Sequence record: PQ306574.1
DNA length: 64,000 nt
Source of the DNA: Escherichia phage vB_EcoM_PTE-Eco09
Direction: 5' to 3' (one strand)
Shown here: one piece after another, positions 1,693-42,545 of the stretch
Position numbering within the stretch: position 1 is the stretch's first letter
Layout: the number at the start of each line of letters is the position of its first letter
The notes under the pieces: generated by a model
The model's database searches: none
What the model saw: only the letters and a program-made list of their open reading frames with translations
Told to the model about the DNA's origin: nothing
Translations under genes and position numbers: made by a program

Positions 1693-4635
1693 TTAATTCT
1701 TTTTAAGTTCCGCTAGTTCAGCTTTAACGGCTTTCAATTCTTCGCTCATTTCCTGAAACGCCTTAATTAAAAGAGCGTTGACAGCGGAGTTAGAAATTGT
1801 TAAGATCTCTTCTGGATTATCTGGATCGCCGATCTTAGAAGTTGTTACGGCTTCCGGCAATTCTTTTTCAAGATCCTGAGCAATAATACCAACTTCATGA
1901 GCAATGACAGTACGGTCGGTTAAAGATTTAACCTTGTCATAGGTGTATACCGTCAAGCGATTAACTTTATCGGTTGCATTCTCTTTATACTCTTCCTTGT
2001 TGATTTTAAGGCGAGCATCAGAACGAATATACACATCGTTAAAGTTACCATTGCGACCAGCTTGGAAATCACCGGAGGCGTTAAAGTCAAAGTTTGTGGT
2101 ATGAATATGAAGACGTGCCATAGCATTAGTAATAACACCACTAGGAACGTGTACACCCATTGCTGCGATGTGGTCGAAACCCCATTTGGTCGCTTTCCAT
2201 ACGTTATATGCGGAAGTTTGAGCATTAGGACAATCAACCAATAAGCCAGCAGCGCGAGTTTTCCATTCTGACCATGCACCACCTTGTACTTCTCCGCGAA
2301 TCAGGCCATTACCATCACCGGATACAGTGCCAGATTCCAACTGGATCATTTTATCCGCAAATTTCCACGCCTGGGCTTGTTTCTGACCACGGAAGCGAAT
2401 AACACCAGCATCATCGCAGTACATCAAGCCTAACTCTAAACCGTTTGGATCTCTAAACCAGATGTGCTTATTGCCAGTGCGTTTAAACTCAATATCAGCA
2501 CCGTTCAGGGTAATATTACCGCCAGTGTGAATTGCTTTAGGCTTAACAGTACCATTAATGCCAAACTCGATTAATTCAGTACCCGGACCACCCGCACGTT
2601 GAGTATACCAATGCCAGCCGCTTTCATCAGCACATTCAAATACTTGTTTACGAGCATCAGCGCCCCATGCACGAATATTGAAACTAGAAGTAGCTGTACC
2701 CTTACCCCAGCGAATCAGACCAGCAGATTCCAAATCACCGAAGAATTTAGTTTTAATCGCACCAGTTGCTAAAGTACGTTCAGTGGTGAAGTGAGCACCT
2801 TTACTATCTTCAAGCTGTATAACGTTATCACGAGCGTTATTGCTATCGCCCCAATGACTCAAACGGAAATAGTCGCGGGATTGTCCAGCACCAGCATCAA
2901 ATGTTAAATATTGGCCTTTAATGTATGTGTTTCCAGCAAAACGAGCAGCACGACTTGCACGTTCTAAGACTAATGCACCTTCTTTACCATCACCACCCAA
3001 AGTAACATTACCGCTACCCAGATTGTAAGTGAATGGACGATAGCCGTTCCAACCACCAAATTTATCATTTTCGGCAGTAGACAGAAGATATACGTTTTGA
3101 CCATCATTACGCCAGAATGCACCATAGTTACCGTAAATCATACGGAATGCATCACTGTTAGCAGCTACATATTGACCATTGGTGTATACAATTTTTGTTT
3201 TTCCTGTAGTCAAATTTACTTGTCCACTACCTTCCAAATCAAATGAGTTAGCACCAACATCATTACGCCACACAAAACCATCACTAGTACCATCCGCATG
3301 ACCGATATAACCACTACGTTGGTTTTTACCATCACGACGATCCCACCACGCCATATATGCAGCTTGACCAGTCTGTCGATGTAAAGTCATCGCATTACCA
3401 CCACCGTGCAATTCCATTTTACCAGTAATTACATATCCTTTATAATTACCCGGTATTGCACTATTAGAATCAATTCTAATAACTTCTGTAGAATCTGTAG
3501 CACCAGTAGCAAGACGATATACAGCACCCTGAACGGTTTCATGCCAGGTCATTTCATTATAGTTACTACGGAATTTACGAATATATTTTCGTCCAGTACC
3601 CCTATCATTACTCAAGTGAACAATATCATAACTGTTTTGTGTGTTATCGTCAAAACTCAACACACCTCGTTTGTTTTCGGTGTTGAAAAGAGTTACAGCA
3701 CGACCGCCAATAACATTATCACCAGCAGGACGTTCAGCAACAAAATCTGGAACGTCATGAACTACCAGATTAACACCAACACTTTTACCAAATTCAACAA
3801 TAACGTTATCAGTGTAACGCTGATATTTCACATAGATATCATAGTTATCACCAGAAGTATTAACAGCCAAAACATCAAATGATTTGTTTGTATTTCGGCG
3901 ATATGCAATAACGTTAACACCTTTAGGGCGACCATTTCCACTGCGAATAACAATTTCTACAATATCAACTTGATCGTATGCAGTAACGTTATATCCGTTA
4001 CCGCCATGAATACGGAAAAATACGCTAAGACCGTTTTGTGGAATCATTGCAGTTGCTAATTTAAAATAGCCTTCAACGATATCACTAGGAGATGTAGCAA
4101 GTTTAACGTTCTTAACAAACATACGGTCAACTTCTTGTTTGCTATAGACGTTCAATTCTCCTGGAGTTGGTTTATCACCTTCGTGATACATTTTATAGCT
4201 AAATGCTTTTTGACCTTCTCTATTATAGCCATAGGTTTCAACACGAGATCCAGCAGACGCATAACGGAAAGTAAATCCGCGACCGTGCGCTTTACCGGCA
4301 GAATGAGGAACGTTAAGAGTTAGATCCCTGAGTCCATCTTGACCATTGGTACGGAAAGCACCAAAGTAGTTAAGATCTCTCGCTGTCTGGTCTTCCAAAT
4401 AGTTAGCTGTTTTACTTAAGATATAATTATTACCTTTAACCTTACCCGCCATTGTAACATCGCGGTCATACACCGGAGGACAACTTAAATTGATAATATC
4501 ACCGGAATCATTTTTAGTAAGAAGATATTGATCCGCAAGGTTGATTGCCAATTCCCCCGGATTCATCGTACTAGCATCCGGTTTACGACCTTTAGTGCTA
4601 GTGCGTTTAAATTGGATTCTGCTTAAATCTGCCAT
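1693..4635 (-). CDS. 37: long tail fibre distal subunit gp37 with C-terminal intramolecular-chaperone (peptidase S74-like) domain
   Basis: 980 aa; N-terminus MADLSRIQFKR…GELAINL matches T4 gp37 N-terminus; C-terminal ~110 aa carry SDARLK…GIIAQDL…coiled-coil typical of self-cleaving chaperone domains of endosialidase/T5 pb1 type. Confidence 0.85.
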   Translation of the reverse strand: MADLSRIQFKRTSTKGRKPDASTMNPGELAINLADQYLLTKNDSGDIINLSCPPVYDRDVTMAGKVKGNNYILSKTANYLEDQTARDLNYFGAFRTNGQDGLRDLTLNVPHSAGKAHGRGFTFRYASAGSRVETYGYNREGQKAFSYKMYHEGDKPTPGELNVYSKQEVDRMFVKNVKLATSPSDIVEGYFKLATAMIPQNGLSVFFRIHGGNGYNVTAYDQVDIVEIVIRSGNGRPKGVNVIAYRRNTNKSFDVLAVNTSGDNYDIYVKYQRYTDNVIVEFGKSVGVNLVVHDVPDFVAERPAGDNVIGGRAVTLFNTENKRGVLSFDDNTQNSYDIVHLSNDRGTGRKYIRKFRSNYNEMTWHETVQGAVYRLATGATDSTEVIRIDSNSAIPGNYKGYVITGKMELHGGGNAMTLHRQTGQAAYMAWWDRRDGKNQRSGYIGHADGTSDGFVWRNDVGANSFDLEGSGQVNLTTGKTKIVYTNGQYVAANSDAFRMIYGNYGAFWRNDGQNVYLLSTAENDKFGGWNGYRPFTYNLGSGNVTLGGDGKEGALVLERASRAARFAGNTYIKGQYLTFDAGAGQSRDYFRLSHWGDSNNARDNVIQLEDSKGAHFTTERTLATGAIKTKFFGDLESAGLIRWGKGTATSSFNIRAWGADARKQVFECADESGWHWYTQRAGGPGTELIEFGINGTVKPKAIHTGGNITLNGADIEFKRTGNKHIWFRDPNGLELGLMYCDDAGVIRFRGQKQAQAWKFADKMIQLESGTVSGDGNGLIRGEVQGGAWSEWKTRAAGLLVDCPNAQTSAYNVWKATKWGFDHIAAMGVHVPSGVITNAMARLHIHTTNFDFNASGDFQAGRNGNFNDVYIRSDARLKINKEEYKENATDKVNRLTVYTYDKVKSLTDRTVIAHEVGIIAQDLEKELPEAVTTSKIGDPDNPEEILTISNSAVNALLIKAFQEMSEELKAVKAELAELKKN

Positions 4636-4705: not shown

Positions 4706-6196
4706 TTAGAAAGTACCAAAATCAATCACCGCATTAAGTGGAACCGCTCCAACATCAGCCGGAGTAGGTTTATTACCTTCATGATAAAGCTGATAGCGGT
4801 CCACGGTTTGAGTATTGTTTCGAGAACGGAAAAACACGACCTTTGAGTCGTGGGTGATCCCCAGCTTTTCGGTCCCTTTAATATCACTAATGCGGTGAAT
4901 CATAGCAGTACCATCAGCACCGCTTAACGCCGCATAACAGTTATCCCCGTTATAGTTAGTTTTAGCTGTTCTAACGCCATTTGCAGCCGGAACAGTTAAC
5001 GGTCCTGTCATGGTATCGCCAGTTACGTTAACATAGCGAATATCGGCTAATTTACGGTGATCTACATAGTTCCATGCAGTCCAGGATTCATTAGAACACG
5101 AACGCCAGCACATCGGATGGTCAATAGATTCAGGATAATACACCTGAACAATTCGACGAGTACCGACCGCATCTTCTGGTCGATATACCATCAAAACGCC
5201 GTTATAATAGCTATCAGACGGTTTATTAGTACCTGACCCAGCATTTTCCACACGATAGATACCGCGATTAATAAGAGTGTTCCAATCAACGTTTCCAATG
5301 ATGGTTGGATTTGCTACCATTGATTTTCGCTCAAAGTAGCTCAAACGAACCAATTCATTAGGACCAGCGGGATCGTTTGTCGCCAACATTCTAGGCGCTT
5401 GCAAGTTACCTTCCATAATATCACCAGCACGTTTAACCTGTGCATCATTGGTGACATTGCCTAGCCCAACATCGGCTTTAGTTGGTTTATTGTTGGTGTG
5501 ATAAAAACGACCTTCTCTGCCATTAACAAAAATGGTAGGCTCATCTTTACTTCGGAAGACCAACGTATCAAGAACGTTACCATAATAGATCTTAGTCGCA
5601 TCAAAATTAATTAAATCACGTTCCCTTGCAATTAATTTCGAATCAACCGATAGTTTAACAGTGACAGTGTTTAAATTATACGTTCCTGAGAGAGTATCAC
5701 CGCGACGGGAAACTAAATCCAAATCATTATTCGTTGGTTTATTAACAGGGCTATAGACACGTTGACCTGTGTCTTTAATGGTTGTCCCTTCGATAGTCCC
5801 TTTAGACTTAAATTCGCCCGTTGTGGTGTCAATATACGCCATAATAACGCCATCACGGGCATTAACAAAGCCGATTGACTTCCATGAATGCAAACCCCAG
5901 CTTACGCCGTCAAAATTAGCAGCGTCGCTCTGACCTTTAAAGATACCATTCTTTTTGGTTTCTCCAGCCGATGCGCTACCTACGCTTAAACCTTCCTCGA
6001 AATGAACTTGCTTTTGAAATGTGCCACCTTCGGATGCACTAACAGCATCAAAATCGGTAGCCGAAGGTCTATCAAAAGCGGTATAGATTTTATGACCTTT
6101 GTAGAAAAGCTGATCCCCCGCTGGCTGGATCGTCAAGTTTCCTTGCGTCCAAATGGGAGATCCACCTACAGTAGATCCATATTTCAAATCTGCCAT
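4706..6196 (-). CDS. 36: long tail fibre subunit gp36 (enlarged, 496 aa)
   Basis: N-terminus MADLKYGSTVGGSPIWTQGN…PAGD matches T4 gp36 N-terminus; about twice T4 gp36 length. Confidence 0.8.
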   Translation of the reverse strand: MADLKYGSTVGGSPIWTQGNLTIQPAGDQLFYKGHKIYTAFDRPSATDFDAVSASEGGTFQKQVHFEEGLSVGSASAGETKKNGIFKGQSDAANFDGVSWGLHSWKSIGFVNARDGVIMAYIDTTTGEFKSKGTIEGTTIKDTGQRVYSPVNKPTNNDLDLVSRRGDTLSGTYNLNTVTVKLSVDSKLIARERDLINFDATKIYYGNVLDTLVFRSKDEPTIFVNGREGRFYHTNNKPTKADVGLGNVTNDAQVKRAGDIMEGNLQAPRMLATNDPAGPNELVRLSYFERKSMVANPTIIGNVDWNTLINRGIYRVENAGSGTNKPSDSYYNGVLMVYRPEDAVGTRRIVQVYYPESIDHPMCWRSCSNESWTAWNYVDHRKLADIRYVNVTGDTMTGPLTVPAANGVRTAKTNYNGDNCYAALSGADGTAMIHRISDIKGTEKLGITHDSKVVFFRSRNNTQTVDRYQLYHEGNKPTPADVGAVPLNAVIDFGTF

Positions 6197-11934: not shown

Positions 11935-12120
11935 ATGGTTAAAGTTGATTTGTCAGAAGGTGCAAAATGGGTAGTTGACAGAATCCCTGATAAGGATTAC
12001 AATTATTTCCGCGCCGAATTAAACAATGCAATTCTGCGAGTTATGGAGAAGTACGGGTATGACCGTGAAGTATCTAACTCGTTTGGCGAATATGTTGTTG
12101 TGAGAGTGGAGAGAACTTAA
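11935..12120 (+). CDS. hypothetical protein (61 aa)
   Basis: ATG ORF with SD, immediately upstream of rnh. Confidence 0.4.
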   Translation: MVKVDLSEGAKWVVDRIPDKDYNYFRAELNNAILRVMEKYGYDREVSNSFGEYVVVRVERT

Positions 12121-38015: not shown

Positions 38016-38044
38016 GTTGACAGGGGAGGATAACTCCCCTACAA
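38016..38044 (+). promoter_or_regulatory. PeSL-like element
   Basis: TTGACA-GGGGAGGATAACTCCCC-TACAAT; then ACAACC-ATCAAGACGAGATACCACTTAGGAGAATCAAACAATG. Confidence 0.55.
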
Positions 38045-38085
38045 TACAACCATCAAGACGAGATACCACTTAGGAGAATCAAACA

Positions 38086-38337
38086 ATGGCTAACATCGAA
38101 ACCGCAAAGAAAATCGCTAAAGACCTGAACGTTAAAGGCTTCCGTAAACTGAAATTACAGCGTGTACGCTACACCATCGGCAAACAGTGCTCTTTCATGA
38201 GCGAAGAAGTTGCTAACAGCCTGATTGATAACCTGATTGCGGCTGGCTGGGAAGTTGCGGATCTGAAAACTTGCCGCGAACTGGCTAAAAAAGGTCTTTT
38301 AGATTCTGTTACTATCAAACCAATGGGGGCAGCGTGA
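38086..38337 (+). CDS. hypothetical protein (83 aa)
   Basis: ATG ORF behind PeSL; first codons MANIE shared with ORF 40214. Confidence 0.5.
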   Translation: MANIETAKKIAKDLNVKGFRKLKLQRVRYTIGKQCSFMSEEVANSLIDNLIAAGWEVADLKTCRELAKKGLLDSVTIKPMGAA

Positions 38338-38579
38338 AAAGAAAATTAATTAAACGCAATAAGGAATTTCTTAATAACTGCATTAAGGCCGCTAATGGTT
38401 GGCCTTTGTGCCTCTTCCTTTATGATTGGTATTCTAAACAATCAGTTGAGGAAGCACGACACTATAAGAAGATCAGAAAAGAATCACACACAAAACAAGG
38501 TCGCATTAACGGACTTTACTTAATGTGGCACGGTAAAGAACCGACTAAAATCTGTGCTGGGTTAAAGGGTCGTATATGA
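38334..38579 (+). CDS. hypothetical basic protein (81 aa); first gene of coupled four-gene module
   Basis: Start overlaps upstream stop; stop overlaps next start. Confidence 0.45.
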   Translation: MKRKLIKRNKEFLNNCIKAANGWPLCLFLYDWYSKQSVEEARHYKKIRKESHTKQGRINGLYLMWHGKEPTKICAGLKGRI

Positions 38580-39292
38580 AACAAAAATTAATATTCTGCA
38601 ACTTTGACGGATCGGGAATAATGGGGCTAGAATGGGCTAAAGCAGGTCATAAGGTAGTCTGCTTTAATGCGGATGACGCCGACCACGGTACATACAAAAA
38701 GTATAATACCAGATTTGAACATCCAAACATTACCTATGTAAACACATGGATTGATTTGAATTGGCTGGAAAGAGCAATGGACCTTGAATGGGGGAAACCG
38801 GATATTATCTTTGCATTCCCACCGTGCACCAATTTAGCTGTTAGTGGCGCTGCGCACTTTGAACGAAAGAAACTAGAACAAGGACCATTGATTCAAGTTC
38901 ATGATGTAAGGGCAGCTAAAATAACCGCTTATTTGGGTGAATGGCTAGGAGTTCCCTACATGATAGAGAATCCTGTAAGCGTTATCTCTAGTATGTGGCG
39001 TAAGCCTGATTACATGTTCCATCCGTGGGAATATGGCGGTTATTTGCCGGAAGATGATAAACATCCTACTTTTCCTGAGTATATCGCCGCCCGTGATATG
39101 TACCCGAAAAAGACTTGCTTATGGACCGGACAAGGCTTTATAATGCCAGAAAAGAAACCGTTGCAGATTAATAAAGGGTACAGTAAACAGCATTCTAAGC
39201 TAGGCGGGAAAGGAACGAAAACAAAGACTATCAGGTCACTTACCCCGCGAGGATTCGCAAAGGCAGTATTTGAAGCCAATAAGGATCTATGA
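38576..39292 (+). CDS. DNA C5-cytosine methyltransferase-like protein (minimal, 238 aa)
   Basis: Motif order and spacing of C5-MTase catalytic domain: FDGSGIMG (motif I-like), AFPPC (PCQ-like with Cys), IENPV (ENV-like); too short for a canonical target recognition domain. Confidence 0.45.
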   Translation: MKQKLIFCNFDGSGIMGLEWAKAGHKVVCFNADDADHGTYKKYNTRFEHPNITYVNTWIDLNWLERAMDLEWGKPDIIFAFPPCTNLAVSGAAHFERKKLEQGPLIQVHDVRAAKITAYLGEWLGVPYMIENPVSVISSMWRKPDYMFHPWEYGGYLPEDDKHPTFPEYIAARDMYPKKTCLWTGQGFIMPEKKPLQINKGYSKQHSKLGGKGTKTKTIRSLTPRGFAKAVFEANKDL

Positions 39293-39621
39293 TGAGATTG
39301 TTTAAGTATTCGCTAACGTCAAATTACGATAAACAAGGTCATTGCATCCGTTGCCCTGATTGTCATAGCCATAACATCGAAAGCAAGATCACCGATCATA
39401 TTGATGGACTTTGGTCGCCAGCAAGTGAAATAGAATACTATTGCGCTGATTGTGGAATTGTAGTAGCATATTGGGCATACGGATCATATGATCCATACTT
39501 CCAGATGGGAGAGCGTTCAATCCCTGCGCTTATCTGGAGAATTAAGAACAATATCCGGCATTCATGGGATGAGTTCTTAAAAGATATTGATTTACGTGAT
39601 GACCCATTCAGGAGACTATAA
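39289..39621 (+). CDS. zinc-ribbon protein (110 aa)
   Basis: CIRCPDC … CADCG four-cysteine arrangement; overlapping start with upstream stop. Confidence 0.45.
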   Translation: MMRLFKYSLTSNYDKQGHCIRCPDCHSHNIESKITDHIDGLWSPASEIEYYCADCGIVVAYWAYGSYDPYFQMGERSIPALIWRIKNNIRHSWDEFLKDIDLRDDPFRRL

Positions 39622-39622
39622 C

Positions 39623-40141
39623 ATGAACCGTTTAACGCCTAAACGCCGTTACTATACCAATACTAAAAACTTTGTCATCTCTGTTTATGATGCATGGTTA
39701 GAAGATGGCTATATCAACATGAACCCAGATTATCAGCGTCCTTTAGTATGGGACACCGAAAACAAACGTATGTTTATTGAAAACCTGATTAATGATTTTC
39801 CGGTTGGTGCTATCGCAATGGCTAAGATTGATGATGGCTCTCGCTATGAGATCGAAATCGTGGACGGTAAACAGCGTTTAAACGCAATATTCTCCTTTAT
39901 GAAGGATGAGTTTAGCATTGCTTGTAATGATGATTCTATGTTGTATTACAGTGATTTTACGCCAGCAGAAAAGCGACGTTTCCGAAATCTCGGACTACCC
40001 GCGATCATGATGGAAGAGAGCACACGAGAAGACCGATTAGAGTATTTCTACAAAACAAACTTTTTCGGTGTACCTCAATCGGAAGAACATCGCCAGCATG
40101 TGATTGCATTATTGCAAGATGAACAATTAAAAAATAACTAA
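39623..40141 (+). CDS. DUF262 / ParB-like domain protein (about 172 aa) without nuclease domain
   Basis: DYQRPLVW and EIVDGKQRLNAI resemble DUF262 signatures (FQRxxVW, DGQQR) of GmrSD-type N-terminal domains; start at ATG after GGAG. Confidence 0.45.
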   Translation: MNRLTPKRRYYTNTKNFVISVYDAWLEDGYINMNPDYQRPLVWDTENKRMFIENLINDFPVGAIAMAKIDDGSRYEIEIVDGKQRLNAIFSFMKDEFSIACNDDSMLYYSDFTPAEKRRFRNLGLPAIMMEESTREDRLEYFYKTNFFGVPQSEEHRQHVIALLQDEQLKNN

Positions 40142-40148
40142 AAAGTTG

Positions 40149-40177
40149 TTGACAGGGGATCGGTGATCCCCTATAAT
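40149..40177 (+). promoter_or_regulatory. PeSL-like element
   Basis: TTGACA-GGGGATCGGTGATCCCC-TATAAT; same spacer palindrome as at 34100. Confidence 0.55.
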
Positions 40178-40213
40178 GCACACATACCGAAACGAACTAC
40201 TAAGGAGTATCAA

Positions 40214-40426
40214 ATGGCTAACATCGAAATCATCATTACCGACGTAACTTATGACCGCATTAACGAAATCGGTACTGCATTACTGGAAGATGGAACAACT
40301 CGTACCATCAACTACGCAGAATACGTTGAAATGCGTGGTTGTATTAAACGAGTAGGAAAATATATCCTGATTGAAAAAGACTATTCAGGATACACCTTAG
40401 AGCAATTGCTTGATGGTGCATTATAA
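40214..40426 (+). CDS. hypothetical protein (70 aa)
   Basis: ATG ORF (MANIEIIITDV…) behind PeSL. Confidence 0.5.
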   Translation: MANIEIIITDVTYDRINEIGTALLEDGTTRTINYAEYVEMRGCIKRVGKYILIEKDYSGYTLEQLLDGAL

Positions 40427-40493: not shown

Positions 40494-42545
40494 ATGTTTA
40501 ACTTAGAAATCGACGATCTAATGATTGAATCTTTCGAGAAATGGCTGTTGACGGAAGAGGAAGAAAACTTTGGCAGTATTGCTCCTGTACAGTGCTTAAA
40601 GCCTAAGCAGAATCCTAAACAGCTTTTTGCAGTACAGACACGCGATAAAGATGTGATTGTCCGTCTTTGCAACTTCACCAACAAAACACCTAAAATCATT
40701 CGTATGGGTGACAAGACCGCACATGTTGTACTGTGCGAAATGAACAAAAGCGGTCGTATTGTACAGCTTAAAAATGGTCTAGGCGATAACCCGATTGCAG
40801 TTATGTCAAGTGCTTTTGATGTGGTTATGGAAACAGCCCGTAAAGCGCAATTAGACGCTGTTATGTTCCGTTTTAACGTATCCCGCATGAAAGGTAAGAC
40901 CGAACTGGTTAAGCGCGTTATAGAGCGTTTGGTGCGTCGTACACCGAAGTTTGAAGTATTCCAGCAGGAAGTAATGACCAGCAAAAAGATCGCTTTAGTT
41001 GTTGTCAAGCGTCGCGGTATGGCGATTGATAAGATTAAAGGGATTAAACTTGATGATTCCTTGTTCACTAAAGTAGAAAGTGATTTAGGTGATCGCTGGG
41101 TATCTAAGGCTACTGGTGAATCTCTGACTAAAGATGAGGCATATGCGGCTAGTCTTGTGTCAGAAGAAGAACGAAACGCGGAAGCGGAACAACGCGTAGC
41201 GGCTAAATCTCGTTTGACTAAAGAAGAAATGCTGAAAACTCAAGCGACCTATAACAGCGACTATGTGAATCATCCAGAAAAAATTAATCTTAAACCGGAA
41301 GAAGATATCACCGAAGCCGAACCTAAGAAACAGTTTAATACTCTGATTGATCGTCAAGCCTTAGAACGTTCAACCGCCCGTTCTCTGAATGACTGGACAA
41401 GTGATATTATCACTCGCTATGGTTTCATGCGTACTATTTTTGAAAGCGAAGCCGATGCAAAATACGCAGTAAGCGAACTGGTAAAAGTTCAGGATCAATA
41501 TGATCCGTTGTCTGCGGAAGTTATCGCAGCATCAATCAAACGCTTAAAAGAAATCATGAGCGAGGAAGTATTCGAAAACAAGATCACCGCCCGGGCAATG
41601 GATCGAGTAGACCAGTCTATGCCAGCAGATGTAAAAGCTGAAATGCTGCGTAGTCATATCACCCAGATTAAAACCGATGCCCTACGTAATGTTGCGTCCG
41701 GTATGTTTGAAGCAATTGCTAGCAACATGGGTGAAATGATGGCAGATATTGATCTTGATCTGCCAGGCGCGGAAGGTTTTGTGTTGAGCGAATATGCCGA
41801 TGCAGCATACATCAATATGAACAACTTCCTAACTGATCGTAAGCTGGAAGAGTTTGAAGGCATCGCAGATCCAGAAGAATTGGTCAAGATGTGCGATGCA
41901 CTGGATAATGCCTTCTCCAACTATGGCGTTAAACTTGATCCGGGTACTATTCTGTATCGTGGTATGGACTTCCGGTCGCAAATGTGGGAAACTGCACGTA
42001 AGCAAAAAGCGTTTTACTTTAAAAACTATGTGAGCACTTCCCTTGCACCTAACATTTTTGGCGGCTGGAATGCAAACGTGGCTAGTGCCGTTGCTGGTGT
42101 TGATTCTATGGCTGGCTCTCGCGGTGAAGGTGGCGCTAATGTTGCTTTCTCCATTGCTGGCGCGGAAAACATCCCTGTATTGCCAGTAGGTAACAAAGCA
42201 TTTGCTTACAAAGAATGCGAGATTTTACTTCCTCGCGGTGTTGTGTTATCCTTTGATACGGTAACTCGTGCTACGGCATCGACGGATTCACAAGAAACTT
42301 ATTACATTGAGGCACATATTATGAACAAAAATGAACTGGCAGCATTACAAGAATCTGGCGAGATGATCGCGGACGGTGATGCATTCATCCGTGAAGGTGT
42401 TATTAAACCTGCTTCTGACCTGTCTTTCTCCAGCTTTATTACCGAAGCTAAAACCGAACGTAAGAAAGCAGATAAGGCAACTCTACGTCAGCTTATCGCT
42501 GATCTGGTATCTGTAGACGCAATGCCAGATAAATTTAAAATGTAA
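40494..42545 (+). CDS. alt: ADP-ribosyltransferase Alt
   Basis: 683 aa, essentially the T4 Alt length; shared blocks (LFTKVES-GD…TKDEA-AAS); R-S-E ART motifs (LYRG, STS, ECEILLPRG). Confidence 0.8.
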   Translation: MFNLEIDDLMIESFEKWLLTEEEENFGSIAPVQCLKPKQNPKQLFAVQTRDKDVIVRLCNFTNKTPKIIRMGDKTAHVVLCEMNKSGRIVQLKNGLGDNPIAVMSSAFDVVMETARKAQLDAVMFRFNVSRMKGKTELVKRVIERLVRRTPKFEVFQQEVMTSKKIALVVVKRRGMAIDKIKGIKLDDSLFTKVESDLGDRWVSKATGESLTKDEAYAASLVSEEERNAEAEQRVAAKSRLTKEEMLKTQATYNSDYVNHPEKINLKPEEDITEAEPKKQFNTLIDRQALERSTARSLNDWTSDIITRYGFMRTIFESEADAKYAVSELVKVQDQYDPLSAEVIAASIKRLKEIMSEEVFENKITARAMDRVDQSMPADVKAEMLRSHITQIKTDALRNVASGMFEAIASNMGEMMADIDLDLPGAEGFVLSEYADAAYINMNNFLTDRKLEEFEGIADPEELVKMCDALDNAFSNYGVKLDPGTILYRGMDFRSQMWETARKQKAFYFKNYVSTSLAPNIFGGWNANVASAVAGVDSMAGSRGEGGANVAFSIAGAENIPVLPVGNKAFAYKECEILLPRGVVLSFDTVTRATASTDSQETYYIEAHIMNKNELAALQESGEMIADGDAFIREGVIKPASDLSFSSFITEAKTERKKADKATLRQLIADLVSVDAMPDKFKM

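Follow-up and report, generated by a model that had tools for sequence, protein, structure and literature searches.

The locus described here is best explained, with a probability of roughly 70%, as a single immediate-early unit of Krischvirus that runs from one PeSL-type promoter to the next and consists of five separate genes, among which ORF2 would encode an active, self-sufficient DNA cytosine methyltransferase and ORF4 an autonomous DUF262 protein. The unit is a mosaic early operon of an ordinary type, made up of accessory genes that are mobile independently of one another, and not a dedicated four-part modification or decoy system. The initial annotation had presented four of these genes as one functional module, an interpretation that is not supported by their separate distributions, by the insertions and deletions between relatives or by the translational coupling, which is generic. 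The window is the whole 64,000-nucleotide stretch of Escherichia phage vB_EcoM_PTE-Eco09 (PQ306574.1) that was analyzed.

Phage identity and organization of the unit

The genome from which the window derives belongs to Krischvirus, the RB49/Phi1/GEC-3S-like T4-type phages. The 2.2-kb query is matched over most of its length, at 95% identity or higher, in 56 phage records, nearly all of which are named Krischvirus or are known RB49-like phages (RB49, Phi1, GEC-3S, JSE). In the ELT3-type matches, apparent "insertions" are extra alignment pieces, and the gene order there is normal.

All four ORFs originally called at 38334–40141 are present (Table 1), and direct reading of the junctions confirms their overlapping or abutting stop and start codons. 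The ORF1/ORF2 and ORF2/ORF3 junctions are ATGA overlaps (38576–38579 and 39289–39292, respectively), and the TAA stop codon of ORF3 (39619–39621) is separated by a single nucleotide from the ATG of ORF4 at 39623. The coupling of the proposed unit thus stands; the gene count does not, given that a fifth coupled gene, ORF0, precedes ORF1 and overlaps it by GTGA (38334–38337). The ORFs of the unit are not chance ORFs because all of them have significant PHROG families. An NCBIfam search yields no matches for ORF1, ORF2 and ORF4, and profile searches against Pfam, PHROG and NCBIfam detect no nuclease family in any ORF of the unit. The composition gives no sign of a recent import of ORF2: the GC content is 37–44% throughout, with no anomaly.

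Table 1. Features of the early unit (window coordinates)
Feature	Coordinates	Strand	Basis
PeSL-type early promoter driving the unit	38017..38045	+	Consensus hexamers, spacer stem-loop; homologous site in GEC-3S annotated as promoter
ORF0, 83 aa, phrog_14908, first gene of the unit	38086..38337	+	ORF call, PHROG match
ORF1, 81 aa, GTG start, phrog_7065	38334..38579	+	ORF call, PHROG match
ORF2, 238 aa, predicted short orphan Dcm-like DNA C5-cytosine methyltransferase	38576..39292	+	Motifs, phrog_757
ORF3, 110 aa, C4 zinc-ribbon protein, phrog_2993	39289..39621	+	Weak Pfam match, two CxxC pairs
ORF4, 172 aa, stand-alone DUF262/ParB-fold NTP-binding domain, nuclease-less	39623..40141	+	Motifs, fold
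Next PeSL-type promoter, end of the unit	40149..40177	+	Consensus hexamers, spacer stem-loop

The flanking PeSL-like promoters that had been placed at 38016 and 40149 are confirmed: both match the consensus and contain a G+C stem-loop within the spacer. The upstream site has the structure TTGACA-N17-TACAAT, with a GGGGAG/CTCCCC stem-loop in the 17-nt spacer, and the downstream site is TTGACA-N17-TATAAT with a GGGGATC/GATCCCC stem-loop. Sites of this type occur 3 times in the window, compared with 0.04 expected, and the homologous sites of phage GEC-3S carry promoter annotation. PeSL (promoter-early stem-loop) elements were reportedly described by Arbiol et al. 2010 as mobile regulatory cassettes of T4-type phages. 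The present locus is a typical example that shows no difference from these cassettes: it shares the sigma-70 consensus hexamers, the G+C spacer stem-loop, the position flanking small sets of early genes, and the insertion or deletion of cassette and genes between close relatives. In GEC-3S, gene pairs without an intervening promoter or terminator all overlap or lie at most 4 nt apart. The tight overlap of start and stop codons is generic to the early region and reflects the compact packing typical of T4-type phages.

ORF2, a short Dcm-like methyltransferase

The assignment of ORF2 to the C5-cytosine methyltransferases in the initial annotation is correct at the family level, as indicated by the invariant motifs, the fold and the match to phrog_757. 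All three quoted motifs are present, namely FDGSGIMG (aa 10–17), AFPPC (80–84) and IENPV (130–134), and, like those of ORF4, the quoted residues fall in invariant or near-invariant columns of the family. Among 32 family members, F10, G12, S13 and G14 of motif I (the AdoMet-binding FxGxG), P82, P83 and C84 of motif IV (the Pro-Cys nucleophile), and E131, N132 and P133 of motif VI (an ENP variant of ENV) are invariant, as are W141 and R142, and little or no variation is seen at K178-K179; motif VIII, QxRxR, was not found in ORF2. The profile phrog_757, "DNA methyltransferase", aligns with residues 1–237 (3e-90). PF00145 scores 14.6 bits (E 0.023), below the gathering cut-off of 22, and covers only motifs I–IV; the same profile matches 18 of the 32 family members at E 0.1 or better, the best value being 1.3e-6. 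A phmmer search of ORF2 against PDB chains returns nothing meaningful, as does that of ORF4, and the structural likenesses of both proteins come from fold searches. ORF2 has the three-dimensional fold of C5-methyltransferases, and in its model about 40 residues lie between the strand 180–185 and the C-terminal helix. Compared with the catalytic domains of DNMT3A and DNMT3B and with M.HhaI, M.HaeIII and M.MpeI, ORF2 differs in sequence (11–19% identity), in the size of its target-recognition equivalent (the same ~40 residues) and in lacking a clear QxRxR motif VIII.

The length of ORF2, noted in the initial annotation as too short for a canonical target recognition domain, is the standard one in a phage family that is very large and includes a characterized member. 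Homologs of ORF2 form 7315 clusters at 90% identity, the best 120 of which are 219–259 aa long, and the same short methyltransferase is found in more than 1500 phage genomes. The closest comparison is with the phage Dcm-like family (PHROG 757; KarlJaspers/K42, Drexlerviridae): ORF2 shares 55% identity over the full length (E 9e-93) with the product of the 711-bp Dcm-like gene of KarlJaspers (236 versus 238 aa). Residues C82, E128, K175 and K176, which were mutated in K42 Dcm, align with C84, E131, K178 and K179 of ORF2, so that the catalytic Cys, Glu and Lys-Lys are the same, and both are orphan genes without a cognate nuclease. When expressed alone in E. coli, K42 Dcm produces 5mC on the retron msDNA, as detected by LC-MS, and triggers retron Ec86; CCWGG as the site of this methylation rests on one preprint. 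K42 Dcm is the reported trigger of retron Ec86/Eco1; ORF2 differs from it in belonging to another phage family (Straboviridae) and in its genomic context.

Judging from these similarities, ORF2 is not an oddity but a short phage cytosine methyltransferase of a familiar kind. As a member of the widespread short "phage Dcm-like" family, it is predicted to be active and self-sufficient as a SAM-dependent DNA C5-cytosine methyltransferase; early in infection, it would methylate phage (and host) DNA at a short, sparsely distributed motif. Such methylation might confer protection from cognate restriction enzymes but might also expose the phage to methylation-sensing defenses.

No modified nucleosides are detected in the DNA of Krischvirus TB34, which BrxU leaves uncut, and the TB34 module is 97.4% identical to that of the window. 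The module was also considered as the missing Krischvirus pathway for the cytosine hypermodification reported for SAP, and this candidate was rejected. Together with its promoters, the module is base-for-base identical in SAP and in unmodified TB34 and is therefore ruled out as the cause of the difference in modification between these phages.

ORF4, a stand-alone DUF262 protein

The description of ORF4 as a nuclease-less DUF262 protein is borne out: it is a compact domain of the DUF262/ParB fold with intact NTP-binding motifs and without a nuclease domain. The motifs DYQRPLVW (36–43) and EIVDGKQRLNAI (78–89), numbered from the ATG at 39623, are present as quoted. This ATG (172 aa), which is preceded by AGGAG 8 nt upstream and is the start annotated in GEC-3S and TB34, is most likely the true start, with the TTG at 39587 (184 aa) as the less probable choice. 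An exhaustive search detects 5976 relatives, whereas a word-indexed protein search yields only 7. The conserved NTP-binding motifs of ORF4 are YQR / DGKQR / N, and in the family these residues are strictly kept even though the mean identity is only ~31%.

ORF4 shares the fold of the N-domains of BrxU and SspE, with 11–16% identity to the solved DUF262 domains of defense proteins, and corresponds to the N-terminal DUF262 NTPase domain of the GmrS type. No DUF1524/HNH (GmrD) domain is found, either within ORF4 or in a neighboring gene, and the next promoter begins 8 nt past the 172-aa ORF4. Thus, ORF4 differs from GmrSD, BrxU and SspE/DndI in lacking the DUF1524/HNH nuclease domain, in being encoded by a phage and in being expressed early. 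The protein also has the ParB N-domain fold with the arginine-rich NTP-binding motif; however, the parS-binding HTH, the C-terminal dimerization domain and the ParA partner of canonical partition ParBs are all missing. ORF4 is a single compact 172-aa domain with no Pfam match to an HTH or to the ParB C-terminal region, and neither the ORF list nor the PHROG search reveals a parA gene in the unit.

A further comparison is with the phage ParBs that activate 5mYOX enzymes, the ParB-methyltransferase fusions, DndB and DpdB, which have in common with ORF4 the N-terminal NTP-binding ParB fold without a canonical HTH and a gene located beside that of a DNA-modifying enzyme. In these cases, the partnership is kept across lineages or takes the form of a covalent fusion, whereas ORF4 is associated with the methyltransferase only within a single genus, and the divergent contig L172 lacks this association. 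Furthermore, unlike these ParB-CTPase-fold proteins, ORF4 belongs to the DUF262 branch (PF03235) and not to PF02195.

Literature searches identified no characterized phage protein that consists of DUF262 only. From its motifs, ORF4 is predicted to be an autonomous minimal protein of the ParB/DUF262 fold that binds a nucleoside triphosphate via YQR / DGKQR / N and that, acting alone, might be an NTP-gated switch or an enzyme in early counter-defense or host takeover. An origin by recent acquisition from E. coli was rejected, because none of 5,426 complete genomes of this species contains a close DNA homolog.

A possible, if tentative, reading is that ORF4 is a self-contained enzyme, either an NTPase of the ParB/Srx fold or a nuclease, that would target the DNA of the host or of a competitor, or the nucleotide pools, in host takeover or superinfection exclusion. 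A comparison is offered by Osa, a small stand-alone ParB-like nuclease. The strict conservation of the NTP-binding residues at such low mean identity, the lack of a conserved partner gene and the occurrence of relatives in temperate prophages (e.g., ST64B) as well as in lytic phages are all compatible with such an enzyme; however, no recognizable nuclease catalytic motif was found in ORF4. This reading is compatible with the best explanation, whose "autonomous" component it partly shares.

Alternatively, ORF4 could be a decoy or dominant-negative protein that pairs in an NTP-dependent manner with host DUF262 domains (GmrSD/BrxU, SspE, DndI and similar) and blocks them; in Krischvirus, it might offset the type IV sensitivity created by the phage's own C5 methylation. 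The immediate-early promoter, the BrxU/SspE N-domain fold without any nuclease, the abundance of stand-alone family members in phages and the ability of DUF262-only proteins to pair with DUF262-nuclease proteins (e.g., GmrS1/GmrSD2) all fit this scenario. It nevertheless appears unlikely: identity to the solved defense domains is only 11–16%, the lack of a close DNA homolog in the E. coli genomes speaks against recent capture of a host domain, and literature searches revealed no report of such an inhibitor. Moreover, ORF4 relatives occur in phages and prophages without a Dcm-like gene at the sampled loci, ORF4 itself persists in L172, whose operon has no methyltransferase, and unmodified DNA already explains the resistance of TB34 to BrxU. 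Less likely still is the generalization that the minimal phage DUF262 proteins as a widespread family are NTP-dependent decoys of host DUF262 defenses (GmrSD/BrxU, SspE, DndI), with the Krischvirus member kept beside a Dcm-like methyltransferase to offset 5mC-caused type IV sensitivity.

ORF0, ORF1 and ORF3

The remaining genes appear to encode mutually unrelated small early proteins. ORF0 keeps 72% amino acid identity in contig L172. ORF1 is found at 80% identity or higher in 48 phage records, compared with 56 each for ORF2, ORF3 and ORF4, and is missing in IMG/VR contig L006/L089; from this distribution, it appears to be dispensable. Its homologs are also present in T5-like, JS98-like and Karamvirus phages. 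The call of ORF3 as a zinc ribbon is supported by a weak Pfam match and by two CxxC pairs in the sequence. Homologs of ORF3 are encoded in Nonagvirus and related ~60-kb phages and in Felixounavirus, amid unrelated small genes, with no methyltransferase or DUF262 gene nearby at these loci.

One module or five genes

The four-gene arrangement is seen in Krischvirus and one close relative but not beyond them, and in other phages the genes are each distributed separately. ORF2, ORF3 and ORF4 occur together in 56 of 56 Krischvirus-type records, and there may be a lineage-specific functional link among the three. These 56 genomes are close relatives and so amount to one evolutionary observation.

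The neighborhood tests cover 5 kb on either side of each locus. Within this distance, ORF0–ORF3 are not found near an ORF4 relative at any of 78 non-Krischvirus viral loci, nor are ORF0, ORF1, ORF3 or ORF4 near an ORF2 relative at any of 78 loci (tblastn and, in addition, the DUF262 profile). No conserved partner gene accompanies the ORF4 homologs: the largest cluster of neighbors is present at 13 of 80 loci, and the neighbors in VAC66, ST64B and POP12 are unrelated. The inspected examples of neighbor clusters are lineage-specific (ST64B-like prophages or Slopekvirus). A search for Rosetta-stone fusions of an ORF4-like domain with ORF0–3-like sequences detects none; in the ~270-aa DUF262 proteins, the additional N-terminal ~100 aa bear no relation to ORF0–ORF3. 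Two relatives contain an extra gene, ORFx, between ORF3 and ORF4: in kaaroe it is inserted at this position, and the gene order in L172 is ORF0-ORF1-ORF3-ORFx-ORF4, with the methyltransferase precisely absent.

These observations bear on the possibility of an integrated modification system, in which the methyltransferase has no target recognition of its own, the zinc ribbon recognizes DNA and the ParB-like NTPase loads or activates the enzyme, in parallel to ParB-dependent phage dioxygenases, DpdA/DpdB and ParB-methyltransferase fusions. The adjacency of the genes with their overlapping codons, the very short stretch that separates the catalytic core from the C-terminal helix in the ORF2 model, the invariable co-occurrence of ORF2, ORF3 and ORF4 within Krischvirus, and the existence in phages of ParB-fold activators of 5mYOX enzymes and of ParB-methyltransferase fusions are compatible with such a system. 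It is nonetheless highly improbable, considering that the short methyltransferase is present in more than 1500 phage genomes with the partners at 0 of 78 sampled loci, that the 55%-identical K42 enzyme is active alone, and that L172 retains ORF3 and ORF4 without it. The separation of ORF3 from ORF4 by an extra ORF in kaaroe and L172, the lack of fusions between ORF4-like and ORF0–3-like proteins and the lack of detectable bulk modification in TB34 DNA argue against it as well. The five genes of the unit would thus be individually mobile accessory genes and not subunits of one system.

Implications

A new four-component modification or decoy module would be notable if true; the evidence favors an ordinary mosaic early operon. 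The stand-alone minimal DUF262 proteins, whose NTP-binding motifs are intact, make up a phage family of considerable size and are a reasonable target for anti-defense screens. The Krischvirus phages, the usual "unmodified-cytosine" controls, carry a likely active Dcm-like methyltransferase; sparse 5mC on Krischvirus DNA and sensitivity to methylation-sensing defenses, such as retron Eco1, are therefore predicted.

Organization and promoters of the early unit

For most of the 2.2-kb region that encodes ORF0-ORF4, 56 phage records show at least 95% identity, and the names among these are nearly all Krischvirus or known RB49-like phages (RB49, Phi1, GEC-3S, JSE, TB34, SAP). Given these matches and the Alt-like ADP-ribosyltransferase gene downstream, the window is assigned to an RB49-like, T4-type coliphage, with the locus in its early region. 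In GEC-3S, a second ADP-ribosyltransferase gene comes after the Alt-like gene.

The ORF positions in the initial annotation are confirmed in the sequence; the coupled unit described there also stands but consists of five genes rather than four, ORF0 (38086-38337) having been omitted. The start of ORF4 is best placed at ATG 39623, which gives a predicted protein of 172 aa. Each of the five ORFs significantly matches a PHROG family, so that all appear to be real genes.

As claimed, the unit is flanked by promoters resembling PeSL, the promoter-early stem-loop cassette of T4-type phages: both are consensus stem-loop sites, and their equivalents are annotated as promoters in GEC-3S. The whole window contains three sites of this type (0.04 expected); a search inside the unit for a comparable promoter or a convincing terminator detects none. 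The third site, TTGACA-N17-TACAAT (11975-12003), lies far from the locus, has a different inverted repeat in the spacer (GAATCC...GGATT), and is probably another PeSL-type promoter. The first gene after each flanking promoter opens with the same 15 nt, ATGGCTAACATCGAA (MANIE; 38086-38100 and 40214-40228), which occur twice in the window (0.01 expected); thus, the mobile promoter cassette seems to take the ribosome-binding site and first codons along. Compared with TB34, SAP has a 79-bp tandem duplication of the cassette directly downstream of ORF4, and a 59-aa gene with one PeSL cassette, present in GEC-3S and TB34, is missing from the window, another cassette-sized indel.

Features of the early unit and of related loci (window coordinates unless indicated)
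Feature	Position	Details
PeSL-type promoter	38017-38045	consensus; G+C stem-loop in 17-nt spacer
ORF0/ORF1 junction	38334-38337	GTGA, read from sequence
ORF1/ORF2 junction	38576-38579	ATGA, read from sequence
ORF2/ORF3 junction	39289-39292	ATGA, read from sequence
ORF3/ORF4 junction	39619-39623	TAA 39619-39621, 1-base gap, ATG 39623; AGGAG 8 nt upstream of ATG
PeSL-type promoter	40149-40177	consensus; G+C stem-loop in 17-nt spacer
Alt-like RNA polymerase ADP-ribosyltransferase	40494-42545	683 aa; phrog_802 9e-180; Pfam ADPrib_exo_Tox; downstream of unit
Cassette duplication in SAP	~40125-40230 (equivalent)	SAP (L174) 3630-3810 vs TB34 (L002) 3630-3730
59-aa gene/PeSL indel	40142-40213	vs GEC-3S (L001) 5143-5462; between ORF4 and 70-aa gene (40214-40426)
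ENA contig ERZ27254724 k141_110561 (L172)		2573 bp; after ORF4, LPD25-domain protein and three small hydrophobic ORFs

The methyltransferase-like protein

The C5-cytosine methyltransferase call on ORF2 holds, with PF00145 itself below the cut-off (E 0.023, 14.6 bits against 22, motifs I-IV only). PHROG 757, "DNA methyltransferase", matches the whole protein (3e-90), and in a fold comparison DNMT1, M.MpeI, M.HaeIII and DNMT2 come after the best matches; Foldseek agrees, its top four matches being DNMT3A/3B. An alignment of 32 family members shows FxGSG, PPC(T), ENP and WR without variation and KK with little or none; a C-terminal LGG..TK.IRSL..RG block is conserved as well. PF00145 matches 18 of the 32 (best E 1.3e-6). 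The protein database contains 7315 clusters of homologues, the best 120 of which are 219-259 aa long, so that the short length is a family trait; only about 40 residues occupy the place where a target-recognition domain would be expected, which makes the label "minimal" fair. By tblastn, 1579 phage records contain a family member, among them T1-like phages, Dhillonvirus, Kagunavirus, rV5-like phages, Webervirus and Campylobacter phages.

In a preprint on retron Ec86, all escape mutants of phage K42, a phage that shares 95.4% genome identity with KarlJaspers, map to a 711-bp dcm gene; Dcm expressed alone reportedly places 5mC on msDNA (LC-MS), and the C82A/E128A/K175A/K176A mutant is inactive. 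The KarlJaspers 711-bp gene, "Dcm-like C5 cytosine methyltransferase", shows a full-length identity of 55% to ORF2 (E 9e-93), and the four mutated residues align with C84, E131, K178 and K179. This full-length homology and the aligned residues place ORF2 in a known phage orphan methyltransferase family that is apparently self-sufficient.

The unit in TB34 is 97.4% identical to that in the window. DH5alpha is dcm+. For TB34, propagated on DH5alpha, a 2026 study of phages from the Durham collection found no modified nucleosides detectable by HPLC/MS and no cutting of the DNA by BrxU, which cleaves DNA containing 5mC; given this host, "not detectable" means no bulk modification, and sparse site-specific 5mC would be compatible with the null result. 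If CCWGG were the motif, its 24 sites in 64 kb would amount to ~0.2% of cytosines by our estimate. This Dcm/EcoRII site is under-represented in the window (53.8 +/- 7.0 expected from dinucleotide-preserving shuffles), consistent with selection against it in a phage with unmodified cytosine. The same study reports SAP, which shares 99.96% identity with TB34, as fully modified, a complete difference in cytosine modification; the locus is ruled out as the cause, since SAP and TB34 do not differ by a single base in the genes or in either promoter.

Gene distribution

The interpretation of ORF1-ORF4 as one functional module is not supported. In other phages, ORF1 is found in T5-like and JS98-like phages and Karamvirus; ORF3, a zinc ribbon, in Nonagvirus and related ~60-kb phages and Felixounavirus; and ORF4 in Slopekvirus, Margaery-like phages and ST64B-type prophages. 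Among sampled IMG/VR loci, the arrangement is conserved only within the Krischvirus lineage: any of ORF0-3 lies within 5 kb of an ORF4 relative in only two Krischvirus contigs among 80 loci, and ORF0, 1, 3 or 4 near an ORF2 relative likewise in only two such contigs among 80, the DUF262 profile detecting nothing around the other 78 methyltransferase genes. Homologues of ORF4 have no conserved neighbour at all, and spot checks in VAC66, ST64B, POP12, FritzHoffmann and VLCpiS10a agree.

Gene-sized indels are seen in relatives, both close and moderately distant. The PeSL-bearing contig L172 (55-72% amino acid identity), probably from an undescribed relative of Krischvirus, has the order ORF0-ORF1-ORF3-ORFx-ORF4, with the methyltransferase exactly absent and the ORF1 stop overlapping the ORF3 start; in phage kaaroe, too, ORF3 and ORF4 are separated by this ORFx, at 67% identity. 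ORF1 is missing from one IMG/VR Krischvirus contig and is present in 48 records compared with 56 each for ORF2, ORF3 and ORF4 (at least 80% identity). Translational coupling is not special to the unit, because in GEC-3S all gene pairs without an intervening promoter or terminator overlap or are at most 4 nt apart.

Precedents among ParB-fold/DUF262 proteins exist for both functions initially proposed, a modification module and a decoy. According to the literature, ParB-fold proteins that lack a DNA-binding domain can serve as activators of phage DNA-modifying enzymes, and ParB-methyltransferase fusions are common in phages; nothing in the present analysis links ORF4 to ORF2, however, and a DNA-modification unit formed by ORF2 with its partner genes is highly improbable.

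The DUF262 protein

The DUF262 call on ORF4 is borne out by Pfam GmrSD_N (PF03235, 7e-20, well above the cut-off); PADLOC NsnA also matches at 7e-20, and the phrog_1583 match covers the N-terminal half of the 417-position profile. An exhaustive search yields 5976 relatives, and among the closest, many are stand-alone proteins 160-190 aa long. Across 44 of these, Y37, Q38, R39, W43, Q84 and N146 are invariant and D81, G82 and R85 nearly so; these residues make up the NTP-binding motifs of the DUF262/ParB fold. A second class (P0146, P0152, P0154, P0159-P0161 and others; ~250-290 aa) has DUF262 at the C-terminus, preceded by an extension of ~100 aa that has no Pfam match, is unrelated to ORF0-3, and by eye resembles a small beta-barrel (SH3/Tudor-like).

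The literature describes the pairing of a DUF262-only protein with a DUF262-nuclease, and ORF4 might act as a decoy against host DUF262 defences. However, it shares only 11-16% identity with solved defence DUF262 domains, and 5,426 complete E. coli genomes contain no close DNA homologue, so that this role is unlikely. The strict conservation of the NTP-binding residues points to an NTP-dependent activity of ORF4's own.

Overall, the initial observation is confirmed and its domain calls are correct; the module interpretation is unsupported. Judged by homology, ORF2 adds a member to a known, partly characterised phage methyltransferase family, and ORF4 belongs to an uncharacterised stand-alone subfamily of the known DUF262 domain. 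The favoured reading of ORF4 is an autonomous NTP-gated ParB-fold protein that would serve counter-defence or host takeover at an early stage of infection.
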